NCBI RefSeq assembly: GCF_003334335.1
Contig: NZ_QOWQ01000052.1
From: Escherichia coli
GTDB taxonomy: Bacteria > Pseudomonadota > Gammaproteobacteria > Enterobacterales > Enterobacteriaceae
Reading direction: 5' to 3' (one strand)
DNA length: 20,350 nt
The notes beneath the pieces are model-generated. The model did no database searches. It had not been told where the DNA came from and saw only the letters and a list, made by a program, of their open reading frames with translations. Within the stretch, counting starts at the first letter, position 1. Each line of letters opens with the position of its first letter. Positions 1 through 3,839 of this stretch are shown piece by piece. Position numbers and translations under genes: made by a program.

Positions 1-65
1 AGTTATCGTGAGAGTAATTCATCGGCACGTTAAATCATATCAGGCGTAATACCACAACCCTTAAG

Positions 66-314
66 TTAGCGCTTATGCTGCGCGATCCCCGCATCCGCCG
101 CTTCGCTACGAATTGCCACGCAAATATCGTTCGGCGTGGCGTTATTAAAATCGTCATGCCAGAAACCTGTGGTATCTAATAACGCTTTATTGGCGGGCGT
201 ACCCATCATTACGGAAACATCATCAACATTTTCTGATTCGCTGAGTTTTCGTGAAATAATCATTAAACTGACCGAATCCTGAAAACACCCTTTTTTAATA
301 AAGGCGTGGATCAT
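66..314 (-). CDS. fdrA: FdrA-like N-terminal ORF, 82 codons, apparently truncated
   Basis: ATG at 312-314, divergent from allD with a ~316-bp spacer as expected for fdrA. The protein begins MIHAFIKKG...DSVSLM, which resembles the FdrA/YahF family N-terminus. It ends at TAA 66-68, and the minus strand has stops in all three frames within 30-68, so no full-length fdrA can continue to the window edge. Confidence 0.5.
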   Translation of the reverse strand: MIHAFIKKGCFQDSVSLMIISRKLSESENVDDVSVMMGTPANKALLDTTGFWHDDFNNATPNDICVAIRSEAADAGIAQHKR

Positions 315-630
315 AACAACTCCTTAAAAATTGCACCCATGGCAATTGCACGAGCAGTGTTAATGTGGCGATTACGGTATCGATGACAACGAGTAAATAA
401 GGTGATGAATATCACACAGGAATTATTAACAAAAGAATTCAAATAACCGCCAGGCTATTACTCATTATTTTTTAATAAGCGTGGTTGTTTTAAAAATCAG
501 GTTAAAAGTGAGCGGATTATCAAATAAATTCTAACTATATTTTCTTGCCTGTCTGGATCACATAATCCAGATATTTTCCCTGTATGTTAATTGCAGTCAT
601 GCTTCACACCGTCGTTAAAAAGGAAGACAG

Positions 631-1680
631 ATGAAAATCAGTCGGGAAACACTCCACCAGCTAATTGAGAATAAACTCTGCCAGGCTGGGTTAAAACGTG
701 AGCACGCTGCAACCGTGGCTGAAGTATTGGTTTACGCCGATGCCAGAGGGATCCACTCTCATGGCGCGGTGCGCGTGGAATACTACGCGGAACGCATTTC
801 AAAAGGCGGCACCAACCGCGAACCGGAGTTTCGTCTTGAGGAAACCGGGCCGTGCTCGGCAATTTTACATGCCGACAATGCCGCCGGACAGGTCGCGGCG
901 AAAATGGGTATGGAACATGCCATCAAAACCGCCCAGCAAAATGGCGTTGCGGTGGTCGGTATCAGCCGGATGGGTCACAGCGGCGCAATCTCTTATTTTG
1001 TGCAGCAGGCAGCCCGCGCCGGATTCATTGGCATTTCGATGTGCCAGTCCGATCCAATGGTGGTGCCGTTTGGCGGCGCGGAAATTTACTACGGTACTAA
1101 CCCCCTGGCCTTTGCCGCGCCGGGAGAAGGCGACGAGATCCTTACCTTTGATATGGCGACTACCGTACAGGCATGGGGAAAAGTGCTCGACGCCCGCTCG
1201 CGTAATATGTCTATCCCGGATACCTGGGCGGTCGATAAAAACGGTGTACCAACAACCGATCCGTTCGCGGTACATGCTCTGCTCCCCGCCGCCGGGCCAA
1301 AAGGGTATGGCCTGATGATGATGATTGACGTCCTCTCAGGCGTCTTACTCGGCTTACCGTTCGGGCGACAGGTTAGTTCGATGTATGACGATTTACACGC
1401 AGGGCGTAATTTGGGGCAATTACATATAGTTATTAATCCGAACTTTTTCTCCTCCAGCGAATTATTCCGTCAACATCTTAGCCAGACCATGCGCGAATTA
1501 AATGCCATTACCCCCGCGCCCGGTTTTAATCAGGTTTATTATCCCGGACAGGATCAGGATATTAAACAACGCAAAGCCGCCGTCGAAGGCATCGAAATTG
1601 TTGATGATATTTACCAGTATTTAATTTCCGACGCGCTTTATAACACGTCATACGAAACGAAAAATCCCTTTGCGCAATAA
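631..1680 (+). CDS. allD: ureidoglycolate dehydrogenase (Ldh_2 family), 349 aa
   Basis: ATG at 631 preceded by AAGGAAG; 349-aa ORF; first gene of an allD-allC-allE cluster with short gaps; sequence recognised as AllD. Confidence 0.9.
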   Translation: MKISRETLHQLIENKLCQAGLKREHAATVAEVLVYADARGIHSHGAVRVEYYAERISKGGTNREPEFRLEETGPCSAILHADNAAGQVAAKMGMEHAIKTAQQNGVAVVGISRMGHSGAISYFVQQAARAGFIGISMCQSDPMVVPFGGAEIYYGTNPLAFAAPGEGDEILTFDMATTVQAWGKVLDARSRNMSIPDTWAVDKNGVPTTDPFAVHALLPAAGPKGYGLMMMIDVLSGVLLGLPFGRQVSSMYDDLHAGRNLGQLHIVINPNFFSSSELFRQHLSQTMRELNAITPAPGFNQVYYPGQDQDIKQRKAAVEGIEIVDDIYQYLISDALYNTSYETKNPFAQ

Positions 1681-3810: not shown

Positions 3811-3839
3811 GCCTGATGCGCTTCGCTTATCAGGCCTAC
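3811..3839. repeat. REP-like palindromic unit
   Basis: GCCTGATGCG...CTTATCAGGCCTAC resembles the E. coli REP consensus (GCCKGATGCG...CTTATCMGGCCTAC); it lies in a convergent intergenic spacer. Confidence 0.6.

Follow-up and report, generated by a model that had tools for sequence, protein, structure and literature searches.

The IS186 copy known as IS186A in E. coli K-12 MG1655 (NC_000913.3 15387-16731, transposase gene insL1) lies beside hokC/mokC in a full G4-N6-C4 site and is flanked by a 10-bp duplication. The target consensus given for this element by SaiSree et al. in 2001 is said to consist of a G-run, a short spacer and a C-run. IS186 has also been described from the lon promoter hot spot of E. 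coli B, a G/C-rich target at which it inactivates a chromosomal function and into which its insertion recurs in independent isolates (PMC3045373).

The gene that concerns us here, fdrA, is now named allF. Its product forms, together with AllG (YlbE) and AllH (YlbF), the oxamic transcarbamylase (OXTCase), an enzyme that turns oxalurate into oxamate and carbamoyl phosphate in the anaerobic pathway of allantoin, and a delta-allF mutant produces no oxamate and more oxalate, with flux being diverted to oxalate (PMC11326118). [quoted passage not shown]

Our analysis of a stretch of 20,350 nucleotides from E. coli (the window) revealed an fdrA gene that is very probably interrupted by IS186 directly after codon 79, in a contig that was broken by the repeat, so that the remainder of fdrA would be found on other contigs. 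Compared to IS186A, the 77 nt of the element that are present, its 23-bp repeat and its first 7 transposase codons are identical, and a GGGGATC... motif stands next to the left inverted repeat (IRL) at both sites. In contrast to IS186A, the copy in fdrA lies inside a gene and in a half-site, its G-run is one base further from the IS, and only one of its ends is visible. The lon insertion resembles the fdrA insertion in its recurrence, but it hits a promoter, is found in both orientations and confers a phenotype that can be selected, whereas the fdrA insertion affects coding sequence and shows no sign of selection. The engineered delta-allF (delta-fdrA) strain LMB076 is expected to be the functional equivalent of the allele, as the AllF subunit would be lost in both (PMC11326118). 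LMB076 is, however, a constructed deletion in K-12, whereas the allele in the window may still make an 82-aa N-terminal fragment, and polarity or read-through caused by its 1.3-kb IS may additionally affect allG-allH-allK.

Genomic context of the window

The window is colinear with the K-12 gene order fdrA-allD-allC-allE-glxK...allS-selU-rhsD at 99.975% identity. In this arrangement fdrA occupies the end of the allantoin (ALL) cluster and is transcribed away from allD. The genes allD, allC, allE, glxK, ybbY, allB, allW, glxR, hyi, gcl, allR, allA and allS are all intact and colinear with K-12, and the adjoining allD anchors the identity of the locus. An overview of the features is given in Table 1.

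Table 1. Features of the window discussed in the text, with positions counted from its first nucleotide.
Feature	Position	Strand	Remarks
IS186/IS421 (IS4 family) left, transposase-proximal (IRL) end	1..77	minus	cut by the window edge
insL transposase, first 7 codons (MNYSHDN)	2..22	minus	translation; ATG 22..20, runs off the window edge
23-bp terminal inverted repeat of IS186, CATAAGCGCTAACTTAAGGGTTG	55..77	minus	both arms found in a complete copy
Fusion ORF fdrA'::IS186	66..314	minus	ATG 314..312, TAA 68..66, 82 aa
Native fdrA (allF) codons 1-79	78..314	minus	0 mismatches in 237 nt to K-12 fdrA
Predicted copy of the target-site duplication	78..88	minus	GGATCGCGCAG (11 bp) or GATCGCGCAG (10 bp), by analogy
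Divergent allD-fdrA (allF) control region, intact	315..630		colinear with and essentially identical to K-12 and others
allD, ureidoglycolate dehydrogenase, intact	631..1680	plus	349-aa ORF; annotated as allD in matching genomes
rhsD core, last 77 nt	20274..20350		exact repeat shared with rhsE in the K-12 proxy

The fdrA alleles of E. coli differ among themselves. Between K-12 on the one hand and the allele of EC812A1 and E. coli C on the other, 40 nt and 10 amino acids differ, all of them located downstream of nt 237. In the first 237 nt and across the 20 kb that adjoin them the sequences hardly differ, a pattern that suggests a recombination boundary within or near fdrA.

The interrupted fdrA reading frame

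The reading frame at the left edge of the window encodes FdrA residues 1-79, all of which are identical (79/79) to K-12 FdrA and to WP_000580840.1, followed by His-Lys-Arg. The codons that close the frame (CAT AAG CGC TAA) are all read from the inverted repeat of IS186. A tblastn search with FdrA against the window placed residues 1-79 on window 314-78 with 100% identity, and residues 80-555 were not encoded in the window. The original prediction, which had reported a minus-strand frame with an FdrA-like N-terminus closed by a TAA, was thus confirmed. It had further proposed that all three minus-strand frames carry stops within positions 1-65, and this is the case, with coordinates that are right within one base: the frame of the ORF is closed at 30-32 and again at 3-5, three stops (61-63, 40-42 and 19-21) lie in the third frame, and the second frame has one at 35-37, where a stop had been expected at about 36-38. 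What had been missed is that no stop interrupts this second frame between 34 and the window edge, and that it contains an ATG at 22..20 followed by NYSHDN, the transposase start discussed below.

Intact fdrA measures 1,668 bp and encodes 555 aa in K-12, E. coli C and EC812A1. The expectation that FdrA has about 555 residues and that an intact gene would run open to the edge was therefore well founded (K-12 fdrA, 1,668 bp; PMC11326118), and none of the three references has a stop at the breakpoint that could make the short frame an ordinary feature of the gene.

Alignment of the window to reference fdrA, as had been recommended, showed that identity is lost at window 77/78. The breakpoint between these two positions lies directly after fdrA codon 79: fdrA can be followed through ...GCG GGG ATC GCG CAG (codon 79), and then CATAAGCGCTAACTTAAGGGTTGTGGTATTACGCC... 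begins. When the intact fdrA of EC812A1 and an IS copy were aligned together with the window, identity to fdrA extended through ...GGGGATCGCGCAG and was followed by CATAAGCGCTAACTTAAGGGTTG... of the element. A megablast search with positions 1-700 against 5,426 complete E. coli genomes gave the same picture, with window 78-700 being 100% identical to the fdrA-allD region of many genomes and with similarity to fdrA beginning at window 78 in every case.

For the exact 82-aa product, the only Pfam domain on record is PF27530 HMA_AllF_N. The CoA_binding (PF02629) and Ligase_CoA (PF00549) domains map to FdrA residues 82-555 and are missing from the ORF of the window. Judged from its sequence, this ORF is a disrupted gene fragment and not a functional member of the FdrA/AllF family. 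The 90% cluster to which the 82-aa product belongs holds 241 short N-terminal fragments of FdrA, many of which are partial sequences at contig ends.

The IS186 end and its target site

Window positions 1-77 match the ends of IS186/IS421 over 77/77 nt (E = 1e-31) in 2,749 E. coli records, where the matched features are annotated as 'IS4-like element IS421 family transposase'. Against the curated K-12 feature 'insertion sequence:IS186A' there were 0 mismatches to the left end and 41 to the right end, and it is therefore specifically the IRL end that the window carries. The inverted repeat is identical to both arms of complete IS186 copies, one arm being within the window. A complete copy measures 1,339 bp, is bounded by perfect terminal inverted repeats of 23 bp and matches IS186A with 100% identity from end to end. 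The seven residues MNYSHDN correspond to the N-terminus of the 370-aa transposase WP_001300563.1 / InsL1, which is read in the same direction as fdrA. Not all copies in the databases are of this length: the IS421 copies of Z1323CEC0012 (L004) and of O104:H4 FDAARGOS_349 (L005) measure 1,338 bp as opposed to 1,339 bp, and their transposase genes are annotated as frameshifted and are probably inactive.

We derived the target geometry from six complete IS186 copies (L001-L005 and K-12 IS186A) that were oriented alike. All six are flanked by a direct duplication of 10-11 bp that starts at the last two Gs of a G-run, and this G-run is situated 8-9 nt from the IRL. Examples are the flank GCGGGG-ATTGCGCC before the IS and, in K-12, GGCGGGG-ATCACTCC before and GGATCACTCCCCGCC after the IS. 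The fdrA insertion site, GCGGGGATCGCGCAG followed by the IS, resembles these G-run targets. Its flank reads GCGGGG-ATCGCGCAG up to the IS, with the G-run (GGGG, window 87-90) 9 nt from the IS end and a local GC content of 67.5%, and the motif GCGGGGAT is common to the fdrA site and four of the six reference copies. Because the targets resemble each other in this way, some of the IS421 matches extend 17-21 nt past the end of the IS.

On its far side the site reads GCGATT in intact fdrA and contains no C-run. The fdrA site is thus a half-site like those of L003 and L004 and not a full G4-N6-C4 palindrome as in K-12 IS186A and L005. By analogy to the reference copies, the duplication should be the 11-bp or the 10-bp sequence given in Table 1.

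Occurrence of the junction in other genomes and read sets

A search with window 1-160 did not find the junction in the 5,426 complete E. coli genomes, none of which has a place that covers at least 80% of the query. Genome EC812A1 had appeared as a candidate that covers the whole window, but this turned out to be two separate BLAST matches that had been joined; in this genome the IS421 copy lies in rhsD and fdrA is intact. The copy in question (L002 25742-26854, from NZ_CP116046.1) splits rhsD with the duplication GGCTTATCAC. Neither the JGI metagenome contigs nor the species-representative genomes had a match to the observed first junction.

The exact 82-aa fusion product is, by contrast to the complete genomes, on record in 7 Logan contigs, which are assemblies of independent sequencing runs. 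In the three contigs that were examined (L011-L013) the junction is identical, and they end after 30 nt of the IS, in agreement with an assembly at k=31. Each of the three differs from the window by one SNP over ~3.8 kb, and the SNP is a different one in each. The presence of the junction in seven independent runs, with distinct SNPs in three of them, excludes a chimeric artefact, and the junction is genuine. The allele is either common to a small group of close isolates or, less likely, the result of repeated insertion at a preferred site. As it is absent from the complete genomes and present in several public read sets, it could serve as a lineage marker.

All three k=31 contigs break at window ~3837-3839 in the allE-glxK intergenic region. 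These shared breaks imply a short exact repeat at this position, perhaps a REP-type element.

Both ends of the window as probable assembly boundaries

At its left end the window contains exactly 77 nt of IS186. Its right end runs ~320 nt (20030-20350) into the conserved rhsD core, just past the sequence encoding the DPMGL motif, and this core occurs in several copies (median 3 places per genome). K-12, which has 5 mismatches to the window in 20,273 nt, was used as a proxy for the source strain: of all 77-mers in the last 700 nt, just one, from 20274 to the final base, recurs exactly in a different K-12 rhs locus (rhsE). The last k-mer of the window had no exact second copy inside the window.

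A k of 77 is a usual maximum for SPAdes-type assemblers, and a stop k bases into a repeat is a signature of de Bruijn assembly. Since both ends stop exactly 77 nt into an exact repeat, the window is most likely a complete short-read contig of a k=77 de Bruijn assembly. The window edge is thus an assembly boundary, while the adjacency of fdrA and IS is not an artefact. Because the contig passes through the junction, a competing wild-type path at comparable coverage would not have existed. Both IS186 and rhsD are among the listed causes of contig breaks in E. coli assemblies (PMC3045373 Table 6).

The window also contains an internal diverged repeat, 18792-19043 versus 19988-20239, which is 83% identical over 252 nt. 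The first of these regions is an orphan rhs C-terminal fragment (ylbH-like) that repeats the end of the rhsD core, and this fragment is annotated in EC812A1 as an 'RHS repeat-associated core domain' pseudogene.

Proposed origin of the junction and alternative explanations

We propose that IS186 (synonymous with IS421; IS4 family, 1,339 bp) transposed into fdrA (allF) directly after codon 79, with the element oriented like the gene. Translation of fdrA would then enter the inverted repeat of the IS for three codons and stop at the TAA, and the resulting 82-aa peptide would keep the N-terminal HMA-like domain only and be devoid of the CoA-binding and ligase-like domains. A simple insertion with a target duplication of 10-11 bp would account for this arrangement, in which case other contigs of this assembly should carry the body of the IS, the second junction and fdrA codons 80-555. 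The second junction is predicted to read from the IS186 right end (...GATGGTTCAACCCTTAAGTTAGCGCTTATG) through (G)GATCGCGCAG and then GCGATTATGCAG... / GCGATTATGCAGCAGCTTGAAGAG, with fdrA continuing from codon 80. Points against this proposal are the half-match of the site to the palindromic sites of K-12 IS186A and L005, the distance of 9 and not 8 nt between G-run and IS end, and the absence of the allele from the complete genomes. Among earlier ideas on the cause of the short frame, a rearrangement junction or a strain-specific truncation was right in spirit, while the actual cause, the left end of IS186, had gone unrecognised.

The junction predicted for an 11-bp duplication gave 0 matches in metagenome contigs, from which the first junction is also absent. 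In exact look-ups, the products expected for duplications of 9 or 12 bp were not on record. Their lack fits a duplication of 10 or 11 bp: with either length the right end of the IS would contribute an in-frame stop, and gene callers would restart at Met82. A look-up of FdrA 82-555 returned other disruption alleles among the matches listed, and the ~4.5-kb contigs expected for the IS186 lineage were not among these.

That one junction is visible, that the remainder of fdrA is absent from the window and that the second junction was not found in the searches would also agree with the junction being the boundary of an IS186-mediated rearrangement, i.e. a deletion next to the element or an inversion involving two IS186 copies. 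There is a precedent for IS-associated deletion at the locus: in GCA_949281695.1 an IS1 remnant replaces allE-allC-allD and the 5' end of fdrA. We nevertheless regard a rearrangement as unlikely, and it is equally unlikely that codons 80-555 of fdrA, possibly together with ylbE-ylbF-ybcF, have been deleted or are located far away. The G-run of the flank is placed as is typical for primary IS186 insertions, and recombination between two IS copies could retain this geometry, yet it needs a prior insertion at the fdrA site. The searches for the second junction are uninformative in this respect, as the collections searched also lack the first one. For IS elements in general, simple insertion is much the more frequent event.

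Less probable than such a rearrangement is that the first 77 nt arose from a chimeric join or a graph overlap during assembly and that fdrA is actually intact. The assembler evidently shaped the edges, as on both sides the window reaches exactly one k-mer (77 nt) into a repeat, and none of the complete genomes contains the junction. A de Bruijn path from fdrA into the IS, however, needs reads that span the junction, and a wild-type path at comparable coverage should have made the contig end at the branch point and not 77 nt beyond it. Moreover, the identical junction occurs in the seven assemblies of independent read sets, which were made with a different assembler at k=31. The suspicion that the first ~70 nt might be an artefact does not hold against these observations, the 77 nt being genuine IS sequence at a junction that recurs in seven read sets.

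A point nonsense or frameshift mutation in fdrA, of which the +1 G in the GGGG run (L021-L023) and the -1 C (L024) are known examples in other strains and which had been among the causes suggested initially, is scarcely conceivable here and was rejected, as the 237 nt of fdrA that are present contain no base change relative to the K-12 reference and the sequence beyond the breakpoint is IS186 and not shifted fdrA.

Other natural lesions of fdrA

The other natural disruptions of fdrA are likewise loss-of-function alleles whose lesions fall within the first ~250 nt, so that FdrA 82-555 is called as an ORF of its own, but they are caused by different elements or mutations and lie at different positions than the IS186 allele of the window. 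IS1 was found at fdrA nt ~174 (L019, L020), at ~199 (L016) and in two complete genomes (H1, H2). At nt ~197 (L017) fdrA is joined to GGCACTGTTGCAAA, which we take to be an IS26-type end, and at ~202 (L018) presumably to an IS903-like end. A deletion of one C was found at nt ~181 (L024).

An additional G (GGGG to GGGGG) is present at fdrA nt ~221-225 in L021-L023 (Logan SRR11549085, SRR9829635 and SRR3930432), that is, in the very G-run of the IS186 target. This allele, which occurs in at least three to five independent runs, splits fdrA into ORFs of 85 aa and 474 aa. It may represent real slippage, a lineage marker or a homopolymer sequencing error. In GCA_949281695.1 (L015 9421-10001, from CASDMZ010000005.1), glxK is followed by an IS1 remnant and then by fdrA from nt ~174. 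As judged from this gene order, allE, allC, allD and the 5' end of fdrA are missing, apparently through an IS1-associated deletion.

In total, at least seven independent lesion types were found in the first ~250 nt of the gene, namely IS186, IS1 (two sites), IS26-like, IS903-like, +1 G and -1 C, and the IS186 allele is common to at least eight sequenced isolates. One might read this as a sign that inactivation of fdrA/allF is recurrently selected in some E. coli lineages and is not neutral decay, a notion that we consider improbable. If it were true, the oxamate branch of allantoin catabolism could be costly in certain niches. In a weaker variant, the AllS/ArcA-activated allF promoter may now drive transcription of the IS186 transposase, and if so, transposition would be coupled to the anaerobic availability of allantoin.

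Implications for annotation and allantoin catabolism

The interruption of fdrA is an ordinary insertional inactivation by a fully characterised element, comparable to IS186 at the lon promoter or to the copies resident in K-12; this is known biology with no new mechanism, and that the particular fdrA site is absent from complete genomes is a cataloguing matter. For annotation it means that an fdrA/allF pseudogene interrupted by IS186 is the proper label for the 82-codon ORF, which represents neither a novel small protein nor a nonsense mutant nor an error of sequencing. Likewise, the abrupt edge of the window is to be read as a repeat-induced contig break.

With regard to function, we infer from the truncated sequence that AllF is non-functional and that the oxamic transcarbamylase (AllFGH) activity would be lost. 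Expression of allG-allH-allK is probably reduced by polarity, with some read-through being possible since IS and operon point in the same direction. During anaerobic growth on allantoin, ureidoglycolate would be diverted from oxamate and carbamoyl phosphate to the glyoxylate route. The strain is therefore predicted from its gene content to be without the oxamate branch, which yields carbamoyl phosphate and ATP, and to have kept the glyoxylate/glycerate branch of allantoin catabolism.
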